Assembly (NCBI GenBank): GCA_965153355.1
Contig: OZ231126.1
Location: 9,052,001 to 9,116,000 of the forward strand
Length of the DNA: 64,000 bases
Direction of reading: 5' to 3'
From: Flaccisagitta enflata
Taxonomy: Eukaryota
Part shown: piece by piece, positions 3,288 through 59,453 of the stretch
Layout of the letters: each line of letters opens with the position of its first letter
How positions within the stretch are numbered: position 1 is the stretch's first letter
The notes under the pieces: model-generated
The model's database searches: none
What the model was told of the DNA's origin: nothing
The model's input: the letters and a program-made list of their open reading frames with translations, nothing else
Position numbers and translations under genes: made by a program

Positions 3288-3976
3288 TATATTTTAATGT
3301 TCATGGATAATAGTGTGATAGTGTATGCAAATATCCAAAAAAATATAGAGCATCTTGACAATCAATTTGCTGGACATTTTATCAGGTTTTACTTACATGC
3401 CTGATCGATGAAATCATGATTTGATCTTGGAAAGTAACCAATGAAATCATGATTAGAGACCGCGGTAAGTGTTTTTGTTATTGTTTTGAGGGGATGGATT
3501 CACGTCTCCCATTACACCGTCTTTGGATCAGACAGAGATGCACTTTAAGAAAAAAAATATTCATACACCGTCTTCGGATAGGACTGTAAAATGCAAAACC
3601 TTTATAGCTCCTAAACCACTAGGAAAAAAGTTAGAAATTTTCAGTGAATATTGGTAACATGTGACGGTTTTTGCATGTCAAAGCTCAGATCATAGTATAG
3701 AAAAGGTGAGGGAAAAAGAAATATTAAAAGAAAACCCATCTTTTAATTAGGATCAATTTTTCCCCATTTCCTTAGGATGGAGTTGTCTTTATCTGCTTGA
3801 AATTACTTTGCATTTCAAGAAAAACTCTTGATTTATTTTTGGTGACAGATGTTAACTTATGTATTACCTTTTCCTGCTTATTCTTAGAAAAAAAACAGCA
3901 CCTTCCAAAAAAAAAACAGGGAAAAAAACAATTTTGCTTAAGAAATGGATATTCTTTCAATATTTTGCTTTCCCCT

Positions 3977-4586
3977 TGAGAGCGTTTAACGTCTGATTTC
4001 TTATCAAGCTCCTGATGCGTAATCGCGAGAACTGACTCCACTGCGTAGCTGCGCTAATGATTTGGAACGTACACCCGCTTAGAACGAATTGTTGAGATGA
4101 GCGGTCAAGTTGTCCGCGAAATCAGTCTATTCGTGGAATCCTGATGGACAGAGAGAAAGAAAAAGGTTAGGACAAACTCTGTACATCAATGAAGGACACT
4201 TCTGTAAACGCGCCAAAAAGGTAAAAGGTCAAGGACTTACACGGATGTTGTCGAACGGTTTCCAATCTAGGCGCAGGGCAGGGAAGTCGGGGAAAAAGCA
4301 TCAAAATCGAGTCTTTAACTGAGATTGTGAAGTCGAATGTCAGTAAGAGAGTCAGGGAAGCTACTTTTACTTAACCTAGGAATAAATAACAAATTTAATC
4401 AAAGCATCACGAGATTTGAAATTATTTGGCAGCAATGGAACAATGATCAATGAAATCCACTCTGCAGTCGAGCAGACGCCATCTTGGAATCATCGACGGC
4501 GAGAGAGCCTCTCCTCTTCGGGATCCGCGGAGTCGAATGCATCCGATCGAGCGCTTCTTGACCTGGATATGGTGGGGAATGTCACA
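3977..4586 (-). repeat. 3' LTR (610 bp)
   Basis: Direct repeat of 15488-16277, lacking a 168-bp block plus 3-bp and 9-bp indels. Confidence 0.95.
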
Positions 4587-4598
4587 GTCCCCCCATTT
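4587..4598 (-). promoter_or_regulatory. Polypurine tract
   Basis: Minus strand reads AAATGGGGGGAC immediately before the TG of the 3' LTR. Confidence 0.75.
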
Positions 4599-5424
4599 GA
4601 AATATTTGCCAAAAAAATTTCAAATCTCGTATCTAACTAGTTTCTTGTCAGGGAATACCGTTCATTTAAAATTATATAAGCTATGACAACATCCGGGGCT
4701 CATCTCAAAAACAAAAATTTAAAATTACAAAGACACTATTATAAATAACGTGGATCTCGCGCGGATAAGACGATTCAGAAAATGGGTTCTAGGAGCAGAG
4801 ACACCTACCACGGTCGATCGTCCGGGCTATCGCTACGGTCTGGTTATGAATTGCTCCTCTTGCTCCATTCTGCATCCAGTCTTCATGCTAAAAAAAGGGA
4901 AATTAAACGAAACTAGATCCACGGGAATGATGGACTGAAATAAATAATTAGACTATATGCTAAGTGGTCTATACTAATGTATACACTATACTATTCTACG
5001 TACCAACGCCCCGTTAGGATTGTCCATCACTCCAGCACGTGCGTCTCTGAAAGGTAAGTGGGAGGGGGGATTCCCCCACACCCGGGATGGGCATGGAGAA
5101 ACGGATTTGGAGAGTTAGAACTGATTCTCATTCCTCAAATCATACGCTTAATATTCTAATTTGGTACAATTGATTCATGAGCAATTCAAGACCCCCCCTA
5201 CCCCTCGAGACTTACGCGGGAGAGTTGCAGGGGGTCCCTGTTGGGAACCCCTCCCCCGACCGCCCTCTAGAGAAGCGAGGATGGCCGGCCTGTCCGTCAC
5301 CGGAAGCATCTCGAGTCGCCATTGGATGATCAACCGCTAGTCTTCCGCGACGACGTGAAACGTCGGTATGATACGCGCGATTGAAGTGGGAAGACGATGG
5401 CCGGGATCATGGCGACGAGACCCT

Positions 5425-7761
5425 CTACTTCCGGCCTTTACCCCTGCCGCCCTTGCCTCCACGATAGGATGGCGTGTCGTCTTTCCTACTGTGGCGTGGA
5501 GGGGGGTTTCTGCCGGAAGGTGGCGCGTGGTTGCTCGACGACGCGGAGTGGCGTTGAGTGCCGGAAGTCGAAGGCATCTGTCCGTCGGGCTGAGAGAACT
5601 CAGCGCGGACGCGGTCGGCTTCCTTCTGCGCGTCGGAAAGCAGCTGGGCCATCTGAGCAACCTTTGCGTCATGCTCACCGACAACTTTCATCCTAAAATT
5701 GTACTGTTCGATGAGCTTCCTCGCCAATCTGGCTCTATCCGCGGCGTGATCGGCAGCGTGGATCGCGCGATCCATCGGAGATGAGTTGGGATAGAATGCC
5801 GCCGGAAGAATGTCTACAACCTTTTGAATGTCCTTTGGCCGAGGATGATTTGGCAGCTTGATGGCGATGGCCAACATCTTCTCGGTCAGAAGGTCTTCCG
5901 GCGATTGGGGAGGGCGATGTGAAGGAGAAGCGGATGCAGTCGACGTTGACGACCTGTTGGACGTCGACGCATCCCCAGACTTCCTTTTTGGACGACGATT
6001 TTTCTTCTTTTTGTTGGCGTTTTGCTCCTCTCGTCGCTGTTGGTCGTCGTTGACGGGAGGAGGAGGAGGTGGGGGCAGATTTGCGGCTGCCCCTGCGAGC
6101 GCACCCCCTTGGTTATTCGTTGTCGTCGTCGTTTGAGTTGGGACACGGATTGGTGAAATGTCACGTGACCGCTGGCGTTGAGGAGGAGGAGGCCGGGGAG
6201 CAGGACCATGTGGTAATCTCGCAGGACCATCCATCACCGTCGATGACAACGATGCAGATGCATCCAGCGGTCCACCCCTGCTCACCCGACGTCTCTTCTC
6301 CCTCACTTCGATTTGTAGATTGTTGCCGCCAGCTTTGGCTCGTCGATCGTCTCTCGGATGATGTTGTGGAGGATCCTGCGTCACGGGCGTCTGATGCTGA
6401 TCGCTGCCACTTCCGGTCGAACGCGTAGCCTCCGCGATCCGACGAGCGGCTCCTTCACGTCGTCTTTTTCTCTGATTTGAGGCTTTTCCACGGGAAATGT
6501 CTCTCAAAGTCCCATTTCCCATGTCCGCCATTGCTCCAATTGATCTGATGTTGATGATTTTGCACAATTGGAGCGTCTCGCGAGTTTCAACCGTCGCAAT
6601 CTCTCCGTCCTCTTCGACTAATTCGTCTCTGATGATTTGCGTAGGAACATATGCTCTTCGCTCGGCTTGTGGATGAAGGGCATCTCTCTCCGCACGTAAG
6701 CTACGCTGCTTGTCGTGGTACATCGCAGTGTGCTTCCGTTCGATGAGGGCGTCGACTTGGGCGTTGTAGATCTTCACCAATTCGACTCCTTGTTCCTGCG
6801 AGATGGAGGACAGGTCACTGATGTGCGGCGGGATCACCAGCGTCGCGTCAGGTGATGCTTGAAACGGCGCCGGTACGGTCGAGTCTGCGGCCGGCGTTAC
6901 TTGTAACGTCGACGACTCCACGACCGCCTGCGACGTCTGCGGCGGCGGCGGCAGAATTGGGGGAGCAAGAGGAGGAGCAGTCAATACCCCTTGGGGGCCT
7001 GTAAGGGCGGGTTGAGCAACCTCCCCGGGAGGAAGTCCCTCTCCCCTTCCGTCATGTTCGTGAGTATCCATGTCATCATCCTCACTGTCATCCTGAGTTT
7101 CGTAATTGTCATCGTCGTCGTCGTCGTCATCGTCAAAGTCCAAGTTGTTAGGGTCATTTAAATCTTGTCGCTCTACTCCTTCTGCTCCGCGTGGCGGCGG
7201 GGGGGCGTCCGTGGTTGACTCCGACGTCGAATCCCCCATGAGCGCTTCCACTCCCGAAACTGCCGTATCGAAGCTTTCGTTGGCAGCTTGATTTCTTCTC
7301 GCCTTTCTTGCCGCCCGGAGCGCATCGTCGGCTTGACGACGCGCTTCACTGGCGGCGCGCTTGTCGGCGAAGGCGTTGGCATCGAACGCGTTGAGGGCCC
7401 GAGTAGGAATAGGGTCTGTAACGGTCCACGCACCGGAAGACGAGCTGTTGAAGAGATGGCTGACCCCGTCGATGACGTCATCAGCTCCTCCAACAGCAGA
7501 CTGTTGCAACCCGCGAAGCCGACGTTGTTCTCTGAGGGACGCTGCCCTGGACTCCTGCTCCTGCCTCCTCCTCTTCTTCTCCGGGTCGTTCTTTTCTTCC
7601 TCCACTTTCCTCTTCTCCTCTTCCACCCTCGCCCGTTCCTCCTCCATCCTCCTTGTCTCCTCCTCATGATTCCTCACCAACTCGTCCTGGGCAAGCGCCA
7701 TTCGCTGCCTCCTCGCTTCGCGGATCTCGTCCGGCGTGCCTTGGTTGTTCTGCTGCGACAT
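5425..7761 (-). CDS. Retrotransposon ORF3 in the env position: 778-aa low-complexity/coiled-coil protein of unknown function
   Basis: Intact ORF between pol and the 3' LTR, same strand as gag/pol. E/R/K-rich N-terminus, acidic and Pro-rich tracts, basic clusters, C-terminal RGGKGGRGKGRK; no signal peptide or TM segment visible. Candidate acceptor ttgcag just upstream of the ATG. Confidence 0.8.
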   Translation of the reverse strand: MSQQNNQGTPDEIREARRQRMALAQDELVRNHEEETRRMEEERARVEEEKRKVEEEKNDPEKKRRRQEQESRAASLREQRRLRGLQQSAVGGADDVIDGVSHLFNSSSSGAWTVTDPIPTRALNAFDANAFADKRAASEARRQADDALRAARKARRNQAANESFDTAVSGVEALMGDSTSESTTDAPPPPRGAEGVERQDLNDPNNLDFDDDDDDDDDNYETQDDSEDDDMDTHEHDGRGEGLPPGEVAQPALTGPQGVLTAPPLAPPILPPPPQTSQAVVESSTLQVTPAADSTVPAPFQASPDATLVIPPHISDLSSISQEQGVELVKIYNAQVDALIERKHTAMYHDKQRSLRAERDALHPQAERRAYVPTQIIRDELVEEDGEIATVETRETLQLCKIINIRSIGAMADMGNGTLRDISRGKASNQRKRRREGAARRIAEATRSTGSGSDQHQTPVTQDPPQHHPRDDRRAKAGGNNLQIEVREKRRRVSRGGPLDASASLSSTVMDGPARLPHGPAPRPPPPQRQRSRDISPIRVPTQTTTTTNNQGGALAGAAANLPPPPPPPVNDDQQRREEQNANKKKKNRRPKRKSGDASTSNRSSTSTASASPSHRPPQSPEDLLTEKMLAIAIKLPNHPRPKDIQKVVDILPAAFYPNSSPMDRAIHAADHAADRARLARKLIEQYNFRMKVVGEHDAKVAQMAQLLSDAQKEADRVRAEFSQPDGQMPSTSGTQRHSASSSNHAPPSGRNPPPRHSRKDDTPSYRGGKGGRGKGRK

Positions 7762-8307
7762 GATGGATCTTTACTGCAACAGTTATGCGACGATACCGAC
7801 AAGGGGAAGCTTTTAGCGTAAGATAGTGTAAACGCCTGTTTTTGGAGAAAATTCAGATTTCGAGGTGTAATCAAACGGAAAAGGGAAGACATATTCATTG
7901 ACATCGAAGGAAGGTTAAATGGTATACGCAAATAAAGAAATAAAGACTCTTCGATCAGCGCCTCAAATGACCTCCACACTCAACAGTCAACGATATGGAT
8001 AAAACAGAAAAGGACATGAACGAACGAATGCCTCTATATGGTCAATACGAGATTGAAATGGCATGGCAAAATTTAGATTGTCAGTCAATCATGCGGACAT
8101 TCTCAACTGACTGGGGGCACCATGTACCTCTCTCTCTCCCGTAATCACACACAAAAACATATCAGACAGACCGACTGAGAAAAAGTAAACAAGACCAAAA
8201 TTCATGAGAGAAAGAAACCCTCATTTCCATGTGTAGTCTTTACAAATAGAAACACTTATGCTTCTCTCTGGTCTACTTTCTCTCTCTCTCTTCACACTTA
8301 TCCGTTT

Positions 8308-8795
8308 TTAATCTGAATCCAGCTCCAATCGGACGATCTTTGACCGATCCTTGAGGACGATCTTGCCGTCGGGGCGTAGGATCTGTGCTTTCCGGACATG
8401 ATCACCAGATCCTTCCACTTCGACGACGCGTCCCAAAGACCACTGATGCCGATGAATCGTCTCGTCAACGATGATGACCAATGCATCTTTTTTGATGTTA
8501 ACTTCCGATTTTGTCCATTTGCTCCTTGCGTGCAGCAACTGAAGGTATTCGGCGCGCCATACCTTCCAGAAGGCGTCGACACGGGCCTGTGCGTTTCTCC
8601 ATCGGCATCTCGTTCCCACGGCGTCGTTTCCGGTCTCTGGAGGGAGAATAGCTGCCGACAAGTGTGAGAACGTAGACGGATGCAAGATGTTCACCGGCCT
8701 CAACGCCGATGTATCGCTAGGGTCGTCGCTCAAAGGCGTGAGAGGTCGGCGGTTGAGAATTCCTTCCACCTCGATCACTGCCGTTTGGAAGACGT
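8308..8795 (-). CDS. pol C-terminus (end of integrase core and BEL-type C-terminal domain), frameshifted from the main pol ORF
   Basis: EVEGILNRRPLT...FWKVWRAEYL...W.LGRVVE motifs typical of BEL/Pao integrase ends. Confidence 0.85.
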
Positions 8796-11300
8796 GTCGT
8801 AATGGAGCACGTGACCGGAAGTAATGGATGCCAAATGTTTTTTGAAAAGGGATACGACCCTTTCCCATACGCCGCCGTAATGGGGAGTCCCAGGAGGAAT
8901 GAAGTCCCATTGGAGTCCATGCTGCTGCAGAGCCACCGTCGACGACGCGTTCCACGACTGCATCTCCTCCTTCATGACGCGATTTGCTCCAACCAGGTTG
9001 GTGCCACAGTCGGAGATGAATCGACGCACCGTTTGTCGTCTCGCCGCAAATCGAATGATGGCGTTGATCATTGCCTCTGTGTCCATTTTAAACAACACCT
9101 CCACATGCACCGCCCTCGAAACCATGCAGGTAAATACCACTGCCCAGACTTTATGATCCGCCCTGCCGTTCAGTTTCACCAGGAAGTGACCCATACAGTC
9201 AAGTCCCACCTCCTCAAAGGGCGCTGTTGGAATGAGCCGTCGTTGAGGAAGAGGCGCCATTTGCTGCTTCATAGGATCTTTGAAGTTCCTTTGGCACGTG
9301 ACGCAATGGTGGATAACTGTCTTCACCGCTTGGAGACCTCGAAGAATCCACACGAAGCGTCGCAGTTGGCATAAGACGTGTTTTGGGCCCGCGTGGAGAT
9401 CCTGATGGTGGACGTGGCGAATCAGAGAAGCGACGTTCGGATCCTTCGAAGGGAGAATCATCGGGTATTTCTCATCATGGCCAATGTCCGCGTTTACAAG
9501 TCTGCTTCCGACACGCATCGTCCCTTTCTCGTCGACAACCGGATTGTGATGGCGTAGAGTCTTGCAGATAACTTTGGCGCCGGCGTCGTTGATCAGCGGC
9601 GTCGTTTTCCCCACCGCCTTCAACTTAGTTATCTCTCCGTGGAAATGTTTGAACTGGATTGCGTTGATCAAGCGGCGTTGTGCGTCGTACAATTCAGCCA
9701 TAGATACAGAGTAGGGATTTTGCAGCGTCGTCGCCGCTGCTCTAGTCTTTGCCTTCACCTTCTGTCTCCATCGCTGCGCACACTTCACAATCACGGCGAT
9801 CAAACGCAATTTCGCCACCCATTCCTGGCGACGGGCAGCCACTGCATAGGCGAACATTTCCTTTTCCTTTTCCCCCTCTTCTTCCACCGCTCCTGTCGCG
9901 ACGGCGTTGATTGACGCCTTCGGCGCCGTCGCAATATTCATTGTCGGCCACTCAGATTTGGGGAGGTAGAGAAACTTTGGACTGAAATGGAAAATGTCCC
10001 ATTTGTCCTTGTCGCCGGCGTCAATGCCCCGCGAACAATAGTCCGCTGGGTTGTTGTCCGTGTCAACCCATCTCCATTGAGAATCACTTGAGCCGCTGTG
10101 GATTTTTGAAAGTCGGTTTGCAAAGAAGCTCGGGCGTTTAGACTTGTGGTCAAAAATCATATTCAGCACAGCCTCTGAATCTGACCAGAGCGTCACCATA
10201 TCCTCGGTCACCTTTGGAATGGTTCTCTTGATGAATAGTTTGAGTTTCACCGCTTTCTCTGCCGCTGTCATTTCTAACCTCGGCACCGAATTGTGGTGCG
10301 ACGCTTTTGACGCATTAAGAGGGACGACGTGGGCCTTGGCGCACAAGATGGTAACGCGGATTGTTCCATCCTCGTCTTCCACCAACCAATAGCCCACTAC
10401 TCCAAAACCAGGGATGGCGGCGTCGCAGAAGATGTGAACTTCTCGTCGAATGGCCCACTCAATATGGCGCGGAATTTCAATTTGGATCAGCAATGGAGTC
10501 GCAGAGTACCATTTGGCGAAGCGTTTGATCAACGCCTCCTCCATCGTCGAATCCCATCCTTTCTCGGAAGCTCTCGTCAACTGGAGGCACCTTCTCCCTT
10601 CAAGGGCGCGGGGCGCTGTGAATCCTAGTGGATCATAGTTGTCGGCTTGCATGGAGACCAATTCGCGAGGAGTTGTTGCCACCCTCTTACACGCTTCTGG
10701 ATCGCATCTGAAGATGCAGTCCGTCGACGGCAACCATTGGACCCCCAAGACCTTCGTTGGCTCCTCGAGTTTGGCGCTCAAGTCGACCGCGACATTCGGA
10801 TCCTCGTCCATCACTTCCACCGCGTTCGACTTCCACTTGGTTAAAGTAAATCCGCCGCTCTTCATGGCGGCGATGAGATCTTGCTTCAACTGCAGTGCCT
10901 CGTCAACTGAATCCGCACCACCAGAGCCGTCATCAACGTAGAAGGCATGTCTCAACATTTCGTAGACATTTTCCGGGAAGTCTGGTTTGATCTTTTCTGC
11001 ATGATGGCGTAAAACATAGCTGGTGACGAGACTTGATGAGACTGATCCAAAGATGTGCGCCAAGAAGAGCATCACGACTGCTTCTCTCATGCTTTTGTCA
11101 GTGAACCACATATATCTGAACGTGTCCGCGTCCTCAGGATGGACGCGGACATTATGAAAAAACGCCTTAATATCGGTCATAAGACCGATTTTATGAAGGC
11201 GAAATTTCATAAGAACTTCAGTCAACACGTTCATGATATTAGGGCCTCCAATCAGTAGCTCATTGAGGCAAATGCCGCCAGTCTCCGTCCATCGTGACAA
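8775..11300 (-). CDS. pol: reverse transcriptase, RNase H and integrase
   Basis: RT CLNELLIGGP, DIKAFF, FYVDD; RNase H HIFCDA, LEMTAA, WSDSE, NPADYCSRG; IN H..H/CVTC zinc finger, GLDCMG, ISDCGTN, GGVWERVV. Confidence 0.95.
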   Translation of the reverse strand: MSRWTETGGICLNELLIGGPNIMNVLTEVLMKFRLHKIGLMTDIKAFFHNVRVHPEDADTFRYMWFTDKSMREAVVMLFLAHIFGSVSSSLVTSYVLRHHAEKIKPDFPENVYEMLRHAFYVDDGSGGADSVDEALQLKQDLIAAMKSGGFTLTKWKSNAVEVMDEDPNVAVDLSAKLEEPTKVLGVQWLPSTDCIFRCDPEACKRVATTPRELVSMQADNYDPLGFTAPRALEGRRCLQLTRASEKGWDSTMEEALIKRFAKWYSATPLLIQIEIPRHIEWAIRREVHIFCDAAIPGFGVVGYWLVEDEDGTIRVTILCAKAHVVPLNASKASHHNSVPRLEMTAAEKAVKLKLFIKRTIPKVTEDMVTLWSDSEAVLNMIFDHKSKRPSFFANRLSKIHSGSSDSQWRWVDTDNNPADYCSRGIDAGDKDKWDIFHFSPKFLYLPKSEWPTMNIATAPKASINAVATGAVEEEGEKEKEMFAYAVAARRQEWVAKLRLIAVIVKCAQRWRQKVKAKTRAAATTLQNPYSVSMAELYDAQRRLINAIQFKHFHGEITKLKAVGKTTPLINDAGAKVICKTLRHHNPVVDEKGTMRVGSRLVNADIGHDEKYPMILPSKDPNVASLIRHVHHQDLHAGPKHVLCQLRRFVWILRGLQAVKTVIHHCVTCQRNFKDPMKQQMAPLPQRRLIPTAPFEEVGLDCMGHFLVKLNGRADHKVWAVVFTCMVSRAVHVEVLFKMDTEAMINAIIRFAARRQTVRRFISDCGTNLVGANRVMKEEMQSWNASSTVALQQHGLQWDFIPPGTPHYGGVWERVVSLFKKHLASITSGHVLHYDTSSKRQ

Positions 11301-12283
11301 ATCCGCGTTTTATTCCTTTCCTCCACCACATGGATGGGTAAATACCAGCGTGGCGATGAGATGGTTGCGTCGTCGTTCTTCGGATCAATCTCTATCGCCA
11401 CGCCCGTGTCTACAAATTTGTCCATTTCTTTGAAGACGCGATCGCGGAGGTCATGGTCGTTTGAGAGTTTATATCGGAGGCTTTTTGTCCTTTTGATCGT
11501 CATCGCACGTGCATTTACAGACTTGATAATTTCGACGATTTTCTCTTTCTCATACAGCCATGGAAGCCCCACGACATATTTCTGGAGATTCTCGTCGAAG
11601 TATATCGTCTCCATCACCCGTTTTACAGCGCGACGATTCTCTTCAGACTGGCCCATTTCTTCCTCCGATACAATGGCGAAGTCATGGTAGAACATGCGGT
11701 CGAGAGATTTGCTCAATGCGACGTTATCCACATGGATTGCGTTAATGACAGCGGTATCATCAGATCTTCGTCCACTCTTTCCTGCTACAGTCCATCCAAA
11801 ACCGCATCTGAAGGCTGTCAAAGATCCCGATGGACCTCTTGCCTCCACAGGCATCGTCGCGTCGTAATGGGCGGCGCCGATGATCGATTGGACAGGACCA
11901 TTTACTTTTGGAAATGGAACGTTGCGAAGATGAGATTGATTTGTGAAGTCGCGTTGGCATGGAGCAATATCCGCTTCACCCGTCAATAATTCTCCCGTTA
12001 ATGCGTTACTGATGTGGACATTGTATTCCTCGTCAATCGATGAAAGGATAAAGGACGCTAAGACTTTCTCCTCCACCACTTCACAATTGACCGTATGCAC
12101 GCGCATCAGCATCTTTTCAATTGGTAAGTCTAATTTTTTAACGATTTGAAGCGATAAAACGTCACGATCCGCACCGCTGTCAATCATCCCCAACACTACG
12201 GTGGAACGGCCCGTCGACGCGTTGGTGATCTTTGCAGGGACAATCGGTCGCGTGACATCATCCTCCGCAACTACCGTCCTCAT
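11252..12283 (-). CDS. pol N-terminus: aspartic protease and linker
   Basis: MIDSGAD active-site motif, IIGA flap-like motif, GFGWTVAG, YVVGLPW, WYLPIHVV...RICHD; typical of the BEL/Pao pre-RT region. Confidence 0.9.
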   Translation of the reverse strand: MRTVVAEDDVTRPIVPAKITNASTGRSTVVLGMIDSGADRDVLSLQIVKKLDLPIEKMLMRVHTVNCEVVEEKVLASFILSSIDEEYNVHISNALTGELLTGEADIAPCQRDFTNQSHLRNVPFPKVNGPVQSIIGAAHYDATMPVEARGPSGSLTAFRCGFGWTVAGKSGRRSDDTAVINAIHVDNVALSKSLDRMFYHDFAIVSEEEMGQSEENRRAVKRVMETIYFDENLQKYVVGLPWLYEKEKIVEIIKSVNARAMTIKRTKSLRYKLSNDHDLRDRVFKEMDKFVDTGVAIEIDPKNDDATISSPRWYLPIHVVEERNKTRICHDGRRLAAFASMSY

Positions 12284-12326
12284 CGCGGAGGTAGCAGCGA
12301 GTCACGCCTCCATCACTCTTCCTTCA

Positions 12327-15300
12327 TCAGATGCAGTCGTCCGTCGACGAGCTGCTTGGGGGCGCTGGAGGAACGGTTTTGGAGGCGGCGGCGGCTGCGG
12401 CTAATGCGGCGGGATTTGGCGTCTTAAACGTGATTCCTTCTCCATTTCCTCTCGGCTTGAATAGGCGATCGTGCAGCAGAGTTGCGTGTCTCTTATTGCA
12501 GGATGAACACGTCGGCTTGTCTTTGCAGTCCCGCGCTGAATGGTTTGGGCAGAAACAATGAAAGCATAGACGTTTCTCCGCCAACTTCTTCACACGATCC
12601 TCTGCTGATGGGATGGCTTCCAAAACATGACACGAATGGGAGTTGTGGCGACCTCCACAAATATTGCAGATGTCATTGGGTTGTTGCTTCGGCGGTGAGT
12701 TGACGAGCTGTTCCTTGAAGGTCGCCGGACCGACTGCCGTCGCTGCAACCTTTGTCGGTTTCGGCGCCATGCGTGTCGGTTCTTTGAGGTTGTTGAACGA
12801 TACCCAATGCTTCACCTCCTCGATGAGTTCTTGGAAGCCGTAAGCCGTGCCGTGGCGAGCTTGTTCACGAGCGCTTGCTTTCCAATAGTCCGTCGAGATA
12901 TGTGGCACCCTCGCGTTGATGATGCGGCGGATGTGGACGTCACGATCACACTCCCCAGTTGCATTCAGCAGTTCTGCGACGCTTTCCAGTTTGTACAACG
13001 TGCCAATCAACGCTTGATGGGCTTTCATGTCGTTTTCTGGAACCTTTCCTTTCCTGCAGATGCTGTCGACGGCCGATTGGAACGGATTGACGCTCGTGTT
13101 GAACATTTCGTCCAGGCGTTTCCACAAGGTGCTGTAGACGCGGCGCATATTGTGCGCCTTGATGATGAGTTGTTGACCGTCGATAATTTCCTTCGCTGGA
13201 TTCGCGAAGACGTTGGCCAATTCAGTCACTTTATCAATTTCGTCTAGCTCGATGTTAGAGGCGGCATTTTCAAATTTGGATTTGGCGATGATATAGTCGA
13301 TTGGCTCGAGGTATCCATATGCTTCTCTTGGGCGTGCTGCGCGCATCTCCCTCAATCCCATGTCCTTCGCTCTGACGCGGGCGTCGTAGGCAATCGGGTT
13401 ATCGATGAAGGACACCGCGTTCATCCTCTCGGCAAAGGATTGCGAATGCGCGAGGCCGTTTCGCGCGGAGTCACTTCCGGTTTGACGTCTTTGATATCTA
13501 GGAGGCGACGGCGTTGGGGGCGGCGTCTTTCTCGACTTCCGTCTGTCAACGCGTTCGAACCCTTCGTCGTCGAAGACGTCGTCGACCAGAGGGCGTTGAC
13601 TTCCGCGTGTGTTGCGGGATGTTTGCGGAGCTGGAGGATCACCCGCGATTTGGTGGACGATGACGGGTGAGCTTGGTGATGGCGGCGTCGATTTGCGCGG
13701 CTGAACACGTGTCTGCAAAACGACGCTGTCCTCCAGGTTGAGATCGCTGATCAGTTGTTGGACTCTTGCCATTGCGTCCGCGTGATCCATCGCGTTCTTT
13801 TCTTGCTCCGCTGCATCTTGTCTCGTGCGCAATTGCTCGTGGAGAGGATGTTCACGGGCGGTTGGGGGCGGCGTCTTGGATGGCAGCTGTCTTTGCTGAC
13901 TTTTCTTTTGCGCTTCTCTCTTCTTCCTCTCCTCCTCTTCTTTCCTTTTCTTCTCTTCCTCCTTTTTCTTTTCTTCGCGTCTTTTCTTCTCCTCCATCTT
14001 CTTCCTTTCTTCCGCGTCTCTCTTAGCCACCGCCTTCCTTCTCTCCTCCTCTGCTTTCCTTTCCGCTTCTTTCCTTTTCTTTTCTTCTTTCTCCTCTTTC
14101 TCTCTTTTCTCCAGTGCCATCTTGTTCTTCAAGTTTATCCTCCTTTTCTCCTCTTGCCCTTTTCTTGTCTCCTCTGCCTTCCTTCTCATTTCTTCAGCGT
14201 GGATGCGTTGTCTTTCCTCCTCCTCCTCCTTCTCCTTCTTCCTCCTCTCCTCCTCCTCCCTTCTTTTCCTCTCGTCGATTCCGGCCGTGACCGCATCTGT
14301 TCGGGCATTAACGGCTGCGTTTAATGCGATGTTTGCCGTCATCTGCCGGGCGTTCTCTTCCCGTTGTTGAGATACAGAGCGCGAGCTGAGACGGAATCTC
14401 GTGTTCGCGCGTGCTTCTCTCGCCACCGAGCGTCGAACTTGGTTAACGTCGTCGACGAGACGTCCGACGACTTGCACCATCGCGTCGCCTTGAGCGACTC
14501 TGTCGCCGTCGGCAATCGACTGCTGTAACATGTTGAGAAGGTCTTGCGTGGGAGGGGCGCCGCCGACGGCGCCTGGAGGGAGGTTGGCGTCAGCGTCCGG
14601 CCATGACGTTTCCATTGCGTCGCTGGCGTCGTCGTCTTCATTGTCTCTGGCCGACAAAAAACGTGATTTCGCCGGCGTCACCGGTGTTGGAGGTTCAAAG
14701 TTTATGCGTATCTCTTCGGCGTCTTCTAACGCGCCTGGCGTGTGGGGCGGCGCGTTGTGGCGTTGCTCCGCTGCATTGAGATTCGCTGCTTCCGTGCCGA
14801 CGGGCAAGTCGTCCTCTCCCGCGTCTTCATCGTCGCCGGTCACGTTCGGCGTTGATTTACGTCGTCGTGAAAGGGATTGGACGAAATGCGTCGACGACCC
14901 CATCGTCATCTCGAGAGCGCGTTTTGTTCCAGTCTCTGGTGACTCGTCATGGATGTCGTGGTAGGTCGGCAGGAACAGATGCGACGCAAAAGTGTTTTTG
15001 TCGTGGAAGCATGACGCGTCCCACAGTTTCCGTACCTCCGTCAGTGAGCTTTCGGCTGTCGACAACAATGACGCCGCTTTGTCGGGGTTGTTCGTCGATT
15101 CTGCATGTGCGTAAGTCTTCGTCGTATTGACCAATCGCCACGCCGCTAACCACACTTCCTTTCGAAGGCAGTCCATATCTTGGTAAAAGTCCAAAATATC
15201 GTCATCGTTAAGGGTATCGGCGGTTTTCAACGCCGACATGAAGGCGTTGCGCGTTTTGCGTAGAGCCTTTCGTAATCCGCGAAGCGTCGTGGCTACGGGG

Positions 15301-15443
15301 TCCATTGCGCCCGCATAGACGGACGAGTCGGAAACGACGGACATGCAGTCGGTTGGTCGAAAAGCCTTCCTGCGTTGATTGGGCAGCGAAGGTGGCGGCA
15401 TTGACGTCGCGTCGGTGTTGGCGTTGTTGTTGGCGGTCGACAT
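12327..15443 (-). CDS. gag with a long charged coiled-coil region and triple zinc knuckle
   Basis: CNICGGRHNSHSC, CFHCFCPNHSARDC, CSSCNKRHATLLH; first ATG downstream of the LTR is at 15443 (MSTANN). Confidence 0.9.
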   Translation of the reverse strand: MSTANNNANTDATSMPPPSLPNQRRKAFRPTDCMSVVSDSSVYAGAMDPVATTLRGLRKALRKTRNAFMSALKTADTLNDDDILDFYQDMDCLRKEVWLAAWRLVNTTKTYAHAESTNNPDKAASLLSTAESSLTEVRKLWDASCFHDKNTFASHLFLPTYHDIHDESPETGTKRALEMTMGSSTHFVQSLSRRRKSTPNVTGDDEDAGEDDLPVGTEAANLNAAEQRHNAPPHTPGALEDAEEIRINFEPPTPVTPAKSRFLSARDNEDDDASDAMETSWPDADANLPPGAVGGAPPTQDLLNMLQQSIADGDRVAQGDAMVQVVGRLVDDVNQVRRSVAREARANTRFRLSSRSVSQQREENARQMTANIALNAAVNARTDAVTAGIDERKRREEEERRKKEKEEEEERQRIHAEEMRRKAEETRKGQEEKRRINLKNKMALEKREKEEKEEKKRKEAERKAEEERRKAVAKRDAEERKKMEEKKRREEKKKEEEKKRKEEEERKKREAQKKSQQRQLPSKTPPPTAREHPLHEQLRTRQDAAEQEKNAMDHADAMARVQQLISDLNLEDSVVLQTRVQPRKSTPPSPSSPVIVHQIAGDPPAPQTSRNTRGSQRPLVDDVFDDEGFERVDRRKSRKTPPPTPSPPRYQRRQTGSDSARNGLAHSQSFAERMNAVSFIDNPIAYDARVRAKDMGLREMRAARPREAYGYLEPIDYIIAKSKFENAASNIELDEIDKVTELANVFANPAKEIIDGQQLIIKAHNMRRVYSTLWKRLDEMFNTSVNPFQSAVDSICRKGKVPENDMKAHQALIGTLYKLESVAELLNATGECDRDVHIRRIINARVPHISTDYWKASAREQARHGTAYGFQELIEEVKHWVSFNNLKEPTRMAPKPTKVAATAVGPATFKEQLVNSPPKQQPNDICNICGGRHNSHSCHVLEAIPSAEDRVKKLAEKRLCFHCFCPNHSARDCKDKPTCSSCNKRHATLLHDRLFKPRGNGEGITFKTPNPAALAAAAAASKTVPPAPPSSSSTDDCI

Positions 15444-15475
15444 CGTTGACGTTGCGTGGATCGTTGATGGTTTTT

Positions 15476-15487
15476 GATTCCACGAAT
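15476..15487 (-). promoter_or_regulatory. Primer-binding-site position: ATTCGTGGAATC, complementary to LTR 15640-15651 rather than to a tRNA
   Basis: Directly abuts the 5' LTR end; perfect 12-bp inverted repeat with 15640-15651. Confidence 0.65.
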
Positions 15488-16277
15488 TGAGAGCGTTTAA
15501 CGTCTGATTTCTTATCAAGCTCCTGATGCGTAATCGCGAGAACTGACTCCACTGCGTAGCTGCGCTAATGATTTGGAACGTACACCCGCTTAGAACGAAT
15601 TGTTGAGATGAGCGGTCAAGTTGTCCGCGAAATCAGTCTATTCGTGGAATCCTGATGGACAGAGAGAAAGAAAAAGGTTAGGACAAACTCTGTACATCAA
15701 TGAAGGACACTTCTGTAAACGCGCCAAAAAGGTAAAAGGTCAAGGACTTACACGGATGTTGTCGAACGGTTTCCAATCTAGGCACAGGGCAGGGAAGTCG
15801 GGGAAAAAGCATCAAAATCGAGTCTTTAACTGAGATTGTGAAGTCGAATGTCAGTAAGAGAGTCAGGGAAGCTACTTTTACTTAACCTAGGAATAAATAA
15901 CAAATTTAATCAAAGCATCACGAGATTTGAAATTATTTGGCAGCAATGGAACAATGATCAATGAAATCGTCGCGTCGTGGGAATTTGTTAGAGGGGTCGA
16001 AGTCTATTCTCCTCTAAGCGGTTGAGGAGATACAGTCCATCAATCCTCAACCGGAAGTCAGCGCTTTCTGCGCGCGCGCGCGCTCCTCCACTTCCTCCGT
16101 CGATCGAAGATCTTTCTCCTTTTCCTCGATTTCCTCCACTCTGCAGTCGAGCAGACGCCATCTTGGAATCATCGACGGCGAGAGAGCCTCTCCTCCTCTT
16201 CGGGATCCGCGGAGTCGAATGCATCCGATCGAGCGCTTCTTGACCTGGATATGGTGGGGAATGTGAAGAATGTCACA
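15488..16277 (-). repeat. 5' LTR (790 bp)
   Basis: TG...CA termini; direct repeat of 3977-4586. Confidence 0.95.
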
Positions 16278-16941
16278 CCCCTCATCTTTTCCATACTATG
16301 ATCTGAACTTTGACATGCAAAAACCATCACATATTACCAATATTCACTGAAAATTTCATGATTTTTTTCCAAGTGGTTTAGGAGCTATAAAGGTTTTGCA
16401 TTTTACAGTCCTATCCGAAGACGGTGTATGAATATTTTTTTTCTTAAAGTGCATCTCTTGAATTCCAAATGTTTTTCTTTTATAATTGCTATTTATTTAA
16501 AATTAGGAGCTGTCATCTCATCACCCTGCTAATTTTTTTTTCATTTTATTCCATATTTTTTTTCCCTGAAATGTCAGCTGGAATGAATGTTGATTTTAGT
16601 CACCAACTGGCGATTTAGTAAGCAGATAATTTGCATCACTATTTCCTTCCGCTAAAAGTATTTGTTAGCAGATTTCACTTTACTAATAGCTGCTTGGTAG
16701 TTGGTCAATTTTCTTTTTTGCTGTTCAATTTTGTTACGATCTATCATACTGTTTTTCCTTAATTTTGAATCAATCCCTTGATAAATATTCCATGAATACA
16801 TCTACATGTTAGATGAAAAATCATAGTTATCTGAGATTGTCAGGATAATCAACTGACCCACACACATACACAAAGATACACAGACACACACACACTCACA
16901 CTCACACACACACTCACACACACACACACACAGAAAAGGTA

Positions 16942-18561: not shown

Positions 18562-19669
18562 AAACGGACGAGAGGCCAACGGGCCCAGAGACGGACGAGG
18601 TCAGGCGGACCGATGTGACCCAAATCATTCTTTACATGTGAAAAGCGCACGAATCTTTTCACTGAATGGACAAAAACCTCTGTTCGAACTTGAGTCCAAA
18701 GATGGCTTGATGCCGCAAATCATCAATTGTATTCAGAGTCGTCGGTTGGAAGAAAGATTCACAGATGTAGAGATTAATTGGAGTTGTGGAAGGAGGCTGT
18801 CTAGATGAGCAAGTGCAGAGTGACTAGAAAGATGATGATGATGATGAGGATGATGATGAGGATGATGATGATGATGATTTTGAGGTTTGACGCGCCGCCG
18901 TGTACGAGCGAAACGTCAAATGCACAGACAACGCACTCGAGCCGGTGTAAACTGATCAATTTTGTGTGAGTGCGTGGCGTTATGATATAGTAGCGTAGCT
19001 TATTATTATCTAGTAGCTCGGTAGTACATTACCCTTGCCTTATCGCGAAAAGAGAATCAAACTGCAACGCCTATTTGCCAACATTGTAATCGTACGCTAA
19101 ATGCTCAATGAACTCATGTTAGTCTGACAAGCTCTCGCCCCCGCTTTCTGTCCGTCTGTTTACCTATCTGTCCGTCTGTTTACCTATCTGTCTCTCTGTC
19201 TGTCCTTTTTGTCTTTCCTCCGCCCTATTTCTTTCTCCTTTTCACCCTCAGTCTCGTCAATTGTGAATGTGATAATCTCCCATCGTATGTTTCTCGCAGA
19301 TATGTATACATAACTAATATTCTTATTCCTAGGAACAAGGTATTTCTCAGAAAAGCTCAATTGCGATTAACGATGCTTACGACACTAGAATTTTACGTAT
19401 CACTTACAAAGGAAGAATTAAGGCAAAATAATTTTTGAAAAATTGCCACAAAAAAAACCTTCCTAACGTTTGAATACGGGCAGGACTGAGTAATGATAAT
19501 CGAAATTCAGACGAGTGATATCAAAAGACCCGCACTTGGCCTAATTAAGGAAACTGGCATTTTGCCGCAAAACAGCATTAAAATTGTGACAAGAAACGAC
19601 TAAAACAGGCACAAAGGAAACTTATTCAAAAAAAAAAAAAAGAGAAAGATTACTTCGCCCTACGTAGCA

Positions 19670-33337
<13,668 letters not shown>

Positions 33338-35186: not shown

Positions 35187-53582
<18,396 letters not shown>

Positions 53583-57188: not shown

Positions 57189-58225
57189 ATGTTCTTCTTT
57201 TCTCTGCGCAGCGGCGGGAAGCGGTTGATATTCTCCTTGCTGCTCGTTTGGCTCGTCATCCTCATTTACGTGTCGACGTTTCTCTTCCACGCCACCGACG
57301 AAGCCGCCGGCGTCACTGGAAGCGGCGATGGCGCCGCGTTTCATGGTGGCGCCGGTGGTGGCGTCGATTCCTACGGCGTCGGTGGCGGGATGTTACACCG
57401 CCGGGATGTCGTGGAGTTAGGTGGGGGAGGAGGAGGGGATGATTTACGGCGGCGGTTGGACGAAGCCATGCGTGAATTAGAGGCAGTCAAAAGACAAAAT
57501 CGGGATTTGCAAAAAATGGCGCTGGAAATTAGGGAGGCCAGACACGTCGTGGCTCAGGAGATGAAAGGCGGGGAGAAAATGCCGAAAGAGGTAATTATGT
57601 AAATTCAAAAATGGTAATGAACTGCGGGAGAGATGGTATGATGCTCACTGGCCACTGCAAAATTGGATGGCTTTGGGATGTGATGAAATGTTTAGTCCAC
57701 AGCATTGATTTGGATGAATGTTCTTATAAGAGATAGTGAGCACAAATACGTAGCTTAGTTTTACTTCACACGAAAAGACATGTGCAGACGACACACCTGG
57801 ACATCAGTTACTACACTACGGAATCATACTTTACAGAATCATACACTTCTACATGTATACCGTGCACTACAGAATGACACTTTCAAAAGAAAAGAGAAAA
57901 GAACAATCCATAACATAACAAGATTAGTGCTTCATGGTCGTCATCGATGATATATCAAAATGGACTATTAGTTCAGACTAGTGGAATATGGATTAGCAGG
58001 TGCAGAAAGGGCGACCTGATCAGAGACCCCAAATTGTCTAACTAAAATGCTTATGTTCATTGGTCCATGTTTTTCCAAATTCTCCTTCTTACTTAATTGT
58101 AACTGGATGAGTTTGTAACAAGGAAGGCCATATGCGTCGTAGCGCAGGAAATAAAAGGGGAAGAGAAAGTGCCACAGGAGGTATTGATATCGACAGATCC
58201 TATAGAATTGGCAAGTATAGGTGTT

Positions 58226-58289
<64 letters not shown>

Positions 58290-59453
58290 GGTGGCGGTCC
58301 TTTGGCGGCGATTAGAAAAAGCTCTAAAGGAGCTAGAAAAGGCGTCCTTTTCCGCCGGCAACATTCTCGCCGTGGACGCCGCCGACGCCGCCGCAGCCGC
58401 AGCGCCATCCTCCGTCCACGAATTGACGCGCATGCGCATCGAGAATACCGTCAAGGAAGCGAATCGCTTCTTCATCGGACAAATCAAGTCACTCAAGGAC
58501 AAATTCGACGCTGCCATCGTCAGCGCATCAAGAAGCCATAAAGACGCTAAAAAGAACGCAGGAGGAGGATTATCAGACAATGGGGAATTTGCGGGAGGAT
58601 TTCCATTTTCCGATCCGCGCGGCCGAATGGTCGTCGATAGTGACAACAGTGATACAAATAATGACAATAACTTGAATACAAACAATGTCGTGCCCGGTCT
58701 CGCCGCGTCTTCGTCTTCTTCACACGGCGCCTTCGTCGGAAATGGCGCCGCGGCGGAATGGATGGCCCTCGTCGGCGGCGCCTCGACTCAACTGGCGTCG
58801 ATGTTGTCGACGGGCGGCGAACATCTTCGCGTTCTCGGCGTCGATTTAGAACAATTCCGCGATCTCGACGGTTTAGGCGATTGGCGCCGAAGGGAAGCCC
58901 AACAACTCAGTCAAATCGTACAAAATAGATTGGATTCTCTTCAAAATCCCAAAGACTGCAAAAATGCCAAAAAACTAGTTTGTAATTTGAATAAAGGTAA
59001 GAAGTGTTAACAAATAGAGGCTTATTGGGCGCTAGTTTGTCTGATGTTTCTATGTTTACCGTCAATAGTGTAACATTAATATTAGGGAGACTTGAGAACA
59101 TTTGCCTTGTTGTTTCAAAAATGCGATTAAAAGAGATGCCAATAAGGTGGGACTCCATTGTAGTTAAAACATACGAGATCTTCTTGAGATTCCTGCTCAA
59201 AACTCCTGATTTTACTTAGGTTGTGGTTACGGTTGTCAGCTTCACCACGCTGTTTATTGTTTGGTGGTGGCTTTCGCATCCGGTCGCACATTGATCCTGG
59301 AGTCTTTGGGGTGGCGATACCATCCCGAAGGTGGCTGGGATTCCGTCTTTCAACCCATCTCAAGAACTTGCCTCATTTCCAACGCCGCGCTTCAAGCCTT
59401 GGAGAAACGCGCCAACGATACGAGAGCACAACCATTCACCAATTCTAGGAGAG
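57189..59453 (+). CDS. FUT8: Alpha-1,6-fucosyltransferase, first three coding exons (57189-57590, 58291-58996, 59220-59453); the gene continues beyond the window
   Basis: Type II TM anchor ([17 protein letters not shown]), coiled-coil stem, [50 protein letters not shown]...[12 protein letters not shown]...[13 protein letters not shown]. Confidence 0.93.

Follow-up and report, generated by a model that had tools for sequence, protein, structure and literature searches.

A BEL/Pao retrotransposon of Flaccisagitta enflata with a 12-bp complement between its long terminal repeat and the adjoining sequence: a candidate for Tf1-like self-priming

Introduction

Few steps in the life of a long terminal repeat (LTR) retroelement depend on a specific host RNA; the choice of primer is among them, and host small RNAs derived from the 3' ends of transfer RNAs (tRNAs) can target primer sites of the tRNA type. 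Here we describe an LTR retrotransposon of the BEL/Pao type, 12,301 bp long, that occupies positions 3977-16277 on the minus strand of a stretch of 64,000 nucleotides from Flaccisagitta enflata (assembly GCA_965153355.1, contig OZ231126.1, positions 9,052,001 to 9,116,000 of the forward strand). This whole stretch is referred to as the window, and its numbering is used throughout. The sequence directly after the 5' LTR of the element is complementary to a word inside that LTR, and we consider the element as a candidate for priming of reverse transcription by its own RNA. The features are collected in Table 1.

Results

The element and its borders

Pfam families found on the element are, in order on the minus strand, Peptidase_A17 (1.5e-27), RVT_1, Integrase_H2C2, rve and DUF5641 (4.2e-20). 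By this set of pol domains the element is a member of BEL/Pao (Belpaoviridae), which bears out the assignment made in an initial annotation from the sequence alone. Annotated homologues are named only "uncharacterised proteins", yet they have the same Pfam set as the pol of the window element.

The LTRs begin with TGTGACA and end with CTCTCA, the 5' LTR closing with ...CGCTCTCA at 15488. Identity between the two is complete over 482 nt (15487-15968 vs 3976-4457), and the only differences, which all fall in the upstream part, are 168 nt (16134-15967), a duplication of 9 nt near the start and 3 further nt that the 5' LTR has in excess. The element is flanked by a 5-bp target-site duplication, and 20 contigs in DNA run X1 represent the empty site, passing from 16278 straight to sequence that resembles that before 3976. 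The ends of the LTR are therefore secured without any reference to the pairing described below, namely by the alignment of the two LTRs, the target duplication and the empty-site contigs.

The 168 nt that are extra in the 5' LTR include a run of CG dinucleotides, and the stretches specific to this LTR (15967-16134 and 16255-16270) all lie upstream of the putative transcript start. The host site of insertion is itself another repeat (16299-16400 and 3940-3976) of far higher copy number, with a summed X1 contig depth of 4.5e5 to 1.1e6 vs about 1e5 for the LTR; the empty-site contigs are uninterrupted copies of this repeat.

Complementarity between the LTR and the sequence that follows it

The word GATTCCACGAAT at 15651-15640 within the 5' LTR, repeated in the 3' LTR at 4140-4129, and the 12 nt directly after the terminal CA are exact reverse complements of each other. 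Both this complement and the register claimed for it in the initial annotation, in which extension from the LTR 12-mer would begin at the terminal TG, were confirmed, the latter by the independently fixed LTR end. Since the complement abuts that end, priming at the 12-mer would reproduce the terminus that is observed. The perfect pairing comprises exactly 12 bp and is flanked by A-A and G-A mismatches; past the A-A mismatch two further pairs extend it to 15 nt at 93%. Measured against the published criterion for predicted self-primers (at least 10 bp of complementarity to the 5' LTR, 0-5 bp after the LTR), the element has 12 of 12 at offset 0. Among 20,000 dinucleotide shuffles of the LTR, 12 reached at least 12 nt at offsets 0-5 (6e-4), and the pair is the longest of the seven inverted pairs listed in the 921 nt from 15380 to 16300. 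The helix is present in both the minimum-energy and the centroid folds (z = -2.46); across contexts of 194 to 554 nt its pair probability is 0.89-1.0, and its duplex energy is -16.6 kcal/mol.

A second, 8-bp stem that was proposed to close the structure does exist, is nested within the first and appears in the minimum-energy fold; it is nevertheless at chance level, as perfect 8-bp pairs make up four of the seven inverted pairs listed in the same 921 nt, and for this reason we put no weight on it. Nor does it have a counterpart at that place in L001, the relative described below. The fission yeast element Tf1 is said to require an extra stem (Lin and Levin, 1998, reportedly), and for that stem the window element has no convincing counterpart.

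Copies of the family

Contigs matching 15300-16400 at 88% identity or more were collected from three runs: 1,894 from X1, 257 from X3 and 74 from the metatranscriptome X14. Counting variant places from 5% of depth in these runs, we found none in either 12-mer, either 8-mer, 15451-15593 or 15595-15684 among the 40 places listed (18 further ones exist), many of which lie in the upstream part of the LTR. Since the two LTRs are identical over 482 nt, the family is recently active; it is also young, very abundant and constrained at both arms. Words sampled from the window occur in the DNA runs of a species-labelled study and of marine, aquatic and plankton metagenomes at shares of 0.31 to 0.55, and in six RNA runs at shares of 0.07 to 0.33. 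One X1 contig links 15495 to 16252 via AT and represents a copy whose LTR is without the inner 756 nt.

Extent of the transcript

In the window LTR the word TCAGGATT spans the TCAG that precedes the putative primer, and other TCAG and TCAGTT words occur in the same LTR. Taking A15653 of this TCAG as +1 would give a primer of 14 nt, including two unpaired 5' bases. Summed contig depth in X14, a crude measure, is about five-fold higher over 15485-15669 than in the rest of the LTR: the five bins of the former have 37-70, whereas the 16 bins from 15670 to 16261 have 11-24; over 15300-15484 the depth is 5.6-13.7. A single X14 contig without mismatches has its end at 15650. This step fits a repeated and unique 5' region (R-U5) of 15653-15488 and weakly supports a transcript start near the putative primer. 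Counted from A15653, positions +28 to +32 hold a word that we take to resemble a downstream promoter element; it is not found in L001, is too weak and was not used.

Related elements and their primer sites

A protein search gave 71 pol relatives, and an alignment built from 23 of these yielded 80 loci when scanned against metagenome contigs; in all, 81 loci were analysed. Either of two GC-rich TGG words occurs in 15 of the 81, and the window element has neither. In all seven loci with a tRNA-type site and a defined LTR, the TGG word lies 2-5 nt after the CA, and the longest complement between the post-LTR sequence and the element's own LTR is 0-6 nt vs 12 nt in the window. These relatives, which share about 30% pol identity with the window element, are thus of the tRNA type; this confirms what the profile issued by the international committee for virus taxonomy (ICTV) says of the family (PMC8742986) and agrees with the earlier statement that BEL/Pao elements are generally tRNA-primed.

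The first of the two recurrent words, TGGTGCCGAAACC..., is present in six loci and the second, TGGTCCA..GAGCCGG, which varies between loci at two or three central positions, in nine. The carriers are L010, L017, L020, L022, L023, L033, L037 and eight further loci; in L023 the site lies at junction 1521. A further locus, L064, was considered as a second case of a self-complementary site and was dropped, as its "LTR" proved to be an overlap of the coding region in a wrapped contig.

A FastTree phylogeny of the reverse transcriptase-ribonuclease H (RT-RH) region was built from 58 rows, namely the window, 15 selected from the 71 proteins and the loci with an open reading frame (ORF) of at least 650 aa. 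By topology alone, the window element falls in a clade with P0001-P0023, L001-L003 and L007, all but L003 being from European Nucleotide Archive (ENA) assemblies, and every locus with a tRNA-type site falls outside it. From this placement of the clade apart from tRNA-primed relatives we infer that self-priming, if it operates here, would have arisen independently within BEL/Pao. Viral contigs gave no relative by single-protein search and one weak partial match by alignment, and prokaryote genome contigs gave no relative.

The one close relative with upstream DNA

Upstream DNA was available for one close relative, L001, which shares 44% pol identity with the window element. Its contig is circularly permuted, running from the end of ORF3 through a purine tract, LTR, leader, gag and pol to the start of ORF3, and for this reason the LTR end cannot be read from it. 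No second copy of the upstream 2.3 kb of L001 was found among the loci, and the tail of the sister locus L002 did not match it.

At what we call site 1, the only TCAGGATT of the locus, at 1748, is followed by GGATTAAAT at 1751-1759, and the complement ATTTAATCC stands at 1889-1897, directly after a CA. Of the window word, GATT and AAT persist, and A/T stands in place of CCACG/CGTGG. The layout of L001 is thus that of the window with a different word, which is suggestive of primer and site having changed in concert. Aligned colinearly from TCAG to the site, the regions of the two elements scored 81, compared with 60.8 ± 6.6 for shuffles, of which 1 in 500 reached that score, and with at most 73.5 for 56 other segments of L001. 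RNAalifold on a MAFFT alignment of the window and L001 was uninformative, the arms being out of register and the 3' arm misaligned.

Discussion

Proposed mechanism

Taken together, the exact complementarity, its register at a fixed LTR end, the stability of the fold, a post-LTR word unlike those of tRNA-primed relatives, and a family that is abundant and recently active lead us to regard Tf1-like self-priming with the element's own RNA as the best reading, and one that is probably correct. Transcription would begin at 15651 of the 5' LTR or shortly upstream of it, A15653 of the TCAG being one possibility, and the 5' end of the RNA would fold back across about 150 nt of R-U5 such that GAUUCCACGAAU anneals to the 12 nt after the LTR. 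The element's RNase H might then cleave after U15640, and reverse transcriptase would extend the cut end, copying A15488 and C15489 first and thereby giving the TG/CA terminus that is observed. Should plus-strand synthesis copy the primer, as it does with tRNA primers, each cycle would rewrite the site from the primer. On this proposal the rewriting would keep the two words perfectly matched and would also allow primer and site to change together, as the window (12 bp) and L001 (9 bp) would illustrate. Read from one element and one ambiguous relative, self-priming is plausible. More tentatively, and with rather less confidence than in the mechanism itself, we propose that a clade of BEL/Pao elements in marine animals gave up tRNA priming in favour of the first bases of its own RNA, with an origin separate from those in Ty3/gypsy and Ty1/copia.

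Several observations weigh against self-priming. The first concern this copy and its family: pol is split over three frames, and so the copy itself may not be autonomous; the invariance of the arms among copies speaks for conservation, yet offers no covariation from within the family; and one X3 contig departs from the site after only 7 nt. Others concern the transcript start. The DNA run X1 also steps at the same place, to a smaller extent (157,240 over 15633-15669 vs 89,180 over 15670-15706), and the LTR contains a perfect TCAGTT at both 15833 and 15546, and CATCAGGA for a second time at 15526. In the LTR we found no TATA-like word and no AATAAA, only an ATTAAA at 15910 and none between 15653 and 15488. 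With several initiator-like words and no poly(A) signal in that interval, the sequence by itself does not place R. The raw poly(A) RNA run X24 gave no element read among 12.2 million reads (about 6% of the run), a sample that does not amount to a test.

The remaining points come from L001. Its site 1 duplex has only 9 bp and -7.3 kcal/mol and is absent from folds of 351 nt or more, and its 2,300 nt contain 15 word pairs of at least 9 nt, in about 10 clusters. Short alignments of the window junction to the two L001 sites scored 24 and 21, compared with a background of 19.4 ± 3.8. Moreover, a second site at 2063-2080 (TTCGTGGTTCCCATCAAC) has both the TTCGTGG and the CATCAAC of the window's post-LTR sequence, and between these shared flanks a TGG word at 2066; it could be a relic or the real primer site of L001. 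L001 is accordingly ambiguous and may be read for or against self-priming. The L001 word TGGTTCCCAT may resemble the 3' end of an arthropod tRNA-Glu, and a literature search on it gave nothing related by title among the matches listed.

Alternative explanations

The second site of L001 also bears on the alternative that the primer is a host tRNA or other small RNA, annealing either at offset 0 or in the region of TGGAATC... (15482 onward). The 12 bp paired with the LTR would then be a leader structure that hides or presents the site, much like the U5 stems in the leaders of retroviruses. Such priming would agree with the tRNA-type sites in the 15 related loci and with the family as profiled by the ICTV, and it would account for the TGG that stands 5 nt past the window LTR, a spacer also found in L010; a host RNA ending in ...GAUUCCA would match the window site. 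Read as a tRNA 3' end, however, the window word gives ...GGUUUUUGAUUCCA, with six of seven acceptor-strand positions A or U and an A at the conserved C61. Judged by eye against textbook tRNA structure, it looks unlike cytosolic tRNAs and unlike the sites of the relatives. This argument supports the earlier remark that the site does not look like a tRNA end. In addition, the stem would cover all seven of the first seven nucleotides of such a tRNA site, and known retroviral U5 stems lie beside the primer site without covering it. ARAGORN found no tRNA within the 64-kb window, and Rfam gave no gathering-score match in 15350-16300; at E up to 10 there were three weak Rfam matches, none of them near the gathering score. 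On balance we regard a host primer as unlikely. (ARAGORN on 60 of the loci made three calls, which were not used: a tRNA-Thr in each of L018 and L035, and in L033 a call of undetermined type.)

Less likely again is that the complementarity is a coincidence, or the leftover of a local rearrangement, with no role and with some other primer and site in use. The pair was noticed by scanning many features; 145 of 18,052 arbitrary window positions (0.8%, a figure inflated by real inverted repeats) have a partner of at least 12 nt within their own 790 upstream bases; 310 inverted pairs of at least 10 nt, 40-600 nt apart, occur in 480 kb of related loci; and the second stem is at chance level. Against this, the pair starts exactly at the first base past an independently defined LTR end, is seldom matched in the shuffles despite the six offsets allowed, and stands where a high-copy, recently active family needs a working primer site, with no alternative visible.

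Finally, it is very improbable that the 12-mer lies inside U5 and that transcription starts far upstream (for instance at the perfect initiator-like TCAGTT at 15833, with the sole ATTAAA at 15910), self-priming then proceeding from a long 5' RNA fragment as in a looser relative of Tf1: contigs from RNA libraries do span the whole LTR, but coverage of the unique 3' region (U3) is expected anyway from the 3'-LTR part of transcripts, and X14 depth is low (11-21) over 15670-15854, rising only from about 15669.

Comparison with known priming systems

Self-priming as we propose it for the window element has its closest mechanistic parallel in fission yeasts. Tf1 RNA pairs with the site through its first 11 bases and is cut between bases 11 and 12 (PMC7175516), and the site of Tj1 is complementary to the 5' end of its mRNA (PMC4600332). 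Like these elements and Tf2, all of the Tf1/sushi group of Ty3/gypsy, the window element has a post-LTR site complementary to a word of its own LTR, here with a 12-bp duplex, about 150 nt between the arms and exact register at the LTR end. It differs in being a BEL/Pao element of an animal for which start and cut are postulated, and, if A15653 is +1, its putative primer would carry two unpaired 5' bases, unlike that of Tf1. Members of the Tf1/sushi lineage have a Ty3/gypsy pol, usually with a chromodomain; the pol of the window element is of the Pao type, and the likeness is therefore at most one of mechanism and not of lineage.

In plants, Tcn1 (Ty3/gypsy chromoviruses) and TAR (Ty1/copia) are predicted self-primers, with at least 10 bp of complementarity to the 5' LTR starting 0-5 bp after it (PMC6317226). 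The same sequence criterion picks out the window element, although the plant elements belong to other superfamilies. Self-priming is thus predicted to occur in more than one superfamily, and the initial annotation, which named Ty3/gypsy, made it more exclusive than the prediction for TAR allows. Half-tRNA-primed elements (copia type; Osser, Bryco and Bianca of plants) also lack a tRNA 3'-end site (PMC6317226), but what they pair with is an inner portion of a host tRNA and not, as in the window, their own LTR.

The profile of Belpaoviridae (genus Semotivirus) gives a genome size of 4.2-10 kb and describes priming by a host tRNA, with 18 nt complementary to tRNA-Arg or tRNA-Gly as the site (PMC8742986). 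The window element resembles canonical BEL/Pao in the content and order of its domains, its TG...CA LTRs, 5-bp target duplication and purine tract, and departs from it in its length of 12.3 kb, a gag of 1,038 codons, a third ORF and a post-LTR word unlike a tRNA end. The annotation had known of no description of self-priming in BEL/Pao, and we likewise found no such proposal in a literature search of open-access scope, outside which lay most subscription journals and supplements; in what it returned, self-priming is reported for Ty3/gypsy and Ty1/copia and never for BEL/Pao. The element would thus show a known mechanism in a third superfamily. If so, each of the three large LTR superfamilies would include a departure from tRNA priming, and the family would offer an animal system for the study of the change from tRNA to self. 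It might also help to explain the very high copy number in a planktonic host, and annotation pipelines that consider tRNAs only would score such elements as having no primer site.

Other parts of the element and of the window

Table 1. Features of the BEL/Pao element, by position in the window.
Feature	Position	Strand	Remarks
5' LTR	15488-16277	-	790 nt, TG...CA; aligned to 3' LTR
3' LTR	3977-4586	-	610 nt; aligned to 5' LTR
Target-site duplication CCCCT (+ strand), upstream copy	16278-16282		same 5 nt at 3972-3976; empty-site contigs
Target-site duplication CCCCT (+ strand), downstream copy	3972-3976		same 5 nt at 16278-16282
TCAG word	15652-15655	-	adjoins putative primer upstream; possible initiator, with A15653 as putative +1
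Putative self-primer GAUUCCACGAAU	15640-15651	-	3' U (15640) opposite first post-LTR base (15487)
Candidate primer-binding site ATTCGTGGAATC	15476-15487	-	directly after terminal CA of LTR; reverse complement of 15651-15640
Nested 8-bp stem, 5' arm CUGAUUUC	15629-15636	-	in minimum-energy fold; chance level
Nested 8-bp stem, 3' arm GAAAUCAG	15504-15511	-	in minimum-energy fold; chance level
gag ORF	12327-15443	-	ATG at 15443, 44 nt past LTR; Cys/His knuckles near end
pol part 1, protease region, DSGA motif	11252-12301	-	98% identical to P0001 residues 1-334
pol part 2, reverse transcriptase, Peptidase_A17 region and integrase	8775-11309	-	frame differs from part 1
pol part 3, integrase C-terminus and DUF5641	8308-9087	-	third frame
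ORF3	5425-7770	-	781 aa, low complexity, after pol; no Pfam family
Polypurine tract GGGGGGAC	4587-4594	-	adjoins 3' LTR upstream

The C-terminal third of gag resembles the gag of L001 and L007. In P0001, the protein that is 98% identical, all three parts of pol lie in a single ORF of 1332 aa; relative to it the window copy shifts frame at about 11285 and about 8795, despite its near-identical LTRs, which reflects either a young defective copy or indel errors in the assembly. The clade has a third long ORF after pol, with 459 to 781 codons, two of these ORFs being truncated by contig ends. The counterparts of ORF3 lie at 9031-10560 in L001, 2510-4804 in L002, 1056-3284 in L062 and 1096-2472 in L066; this set, the window included, gave no Pfam family and no blastp similarity among its members.

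Elsewhere in the window, a tandem array at 28606-29500 has a 20-nt period, with 31 overlapping 300-nt register copies and about 45 units. Host exons of an intron-rich genome were found at 47554-48087, 58111-59010, 19604-20248 and 32810-33337. Their products comprise a Drp1-type dynamin, a FUT8-like fucosyltransferase, and a PWWP domain and a NAD_binding_11 domain, a combination that we take to be a GLYR1-like architecture. The Drp1 exon is about 80% identical to insect and branchiopod proteins.

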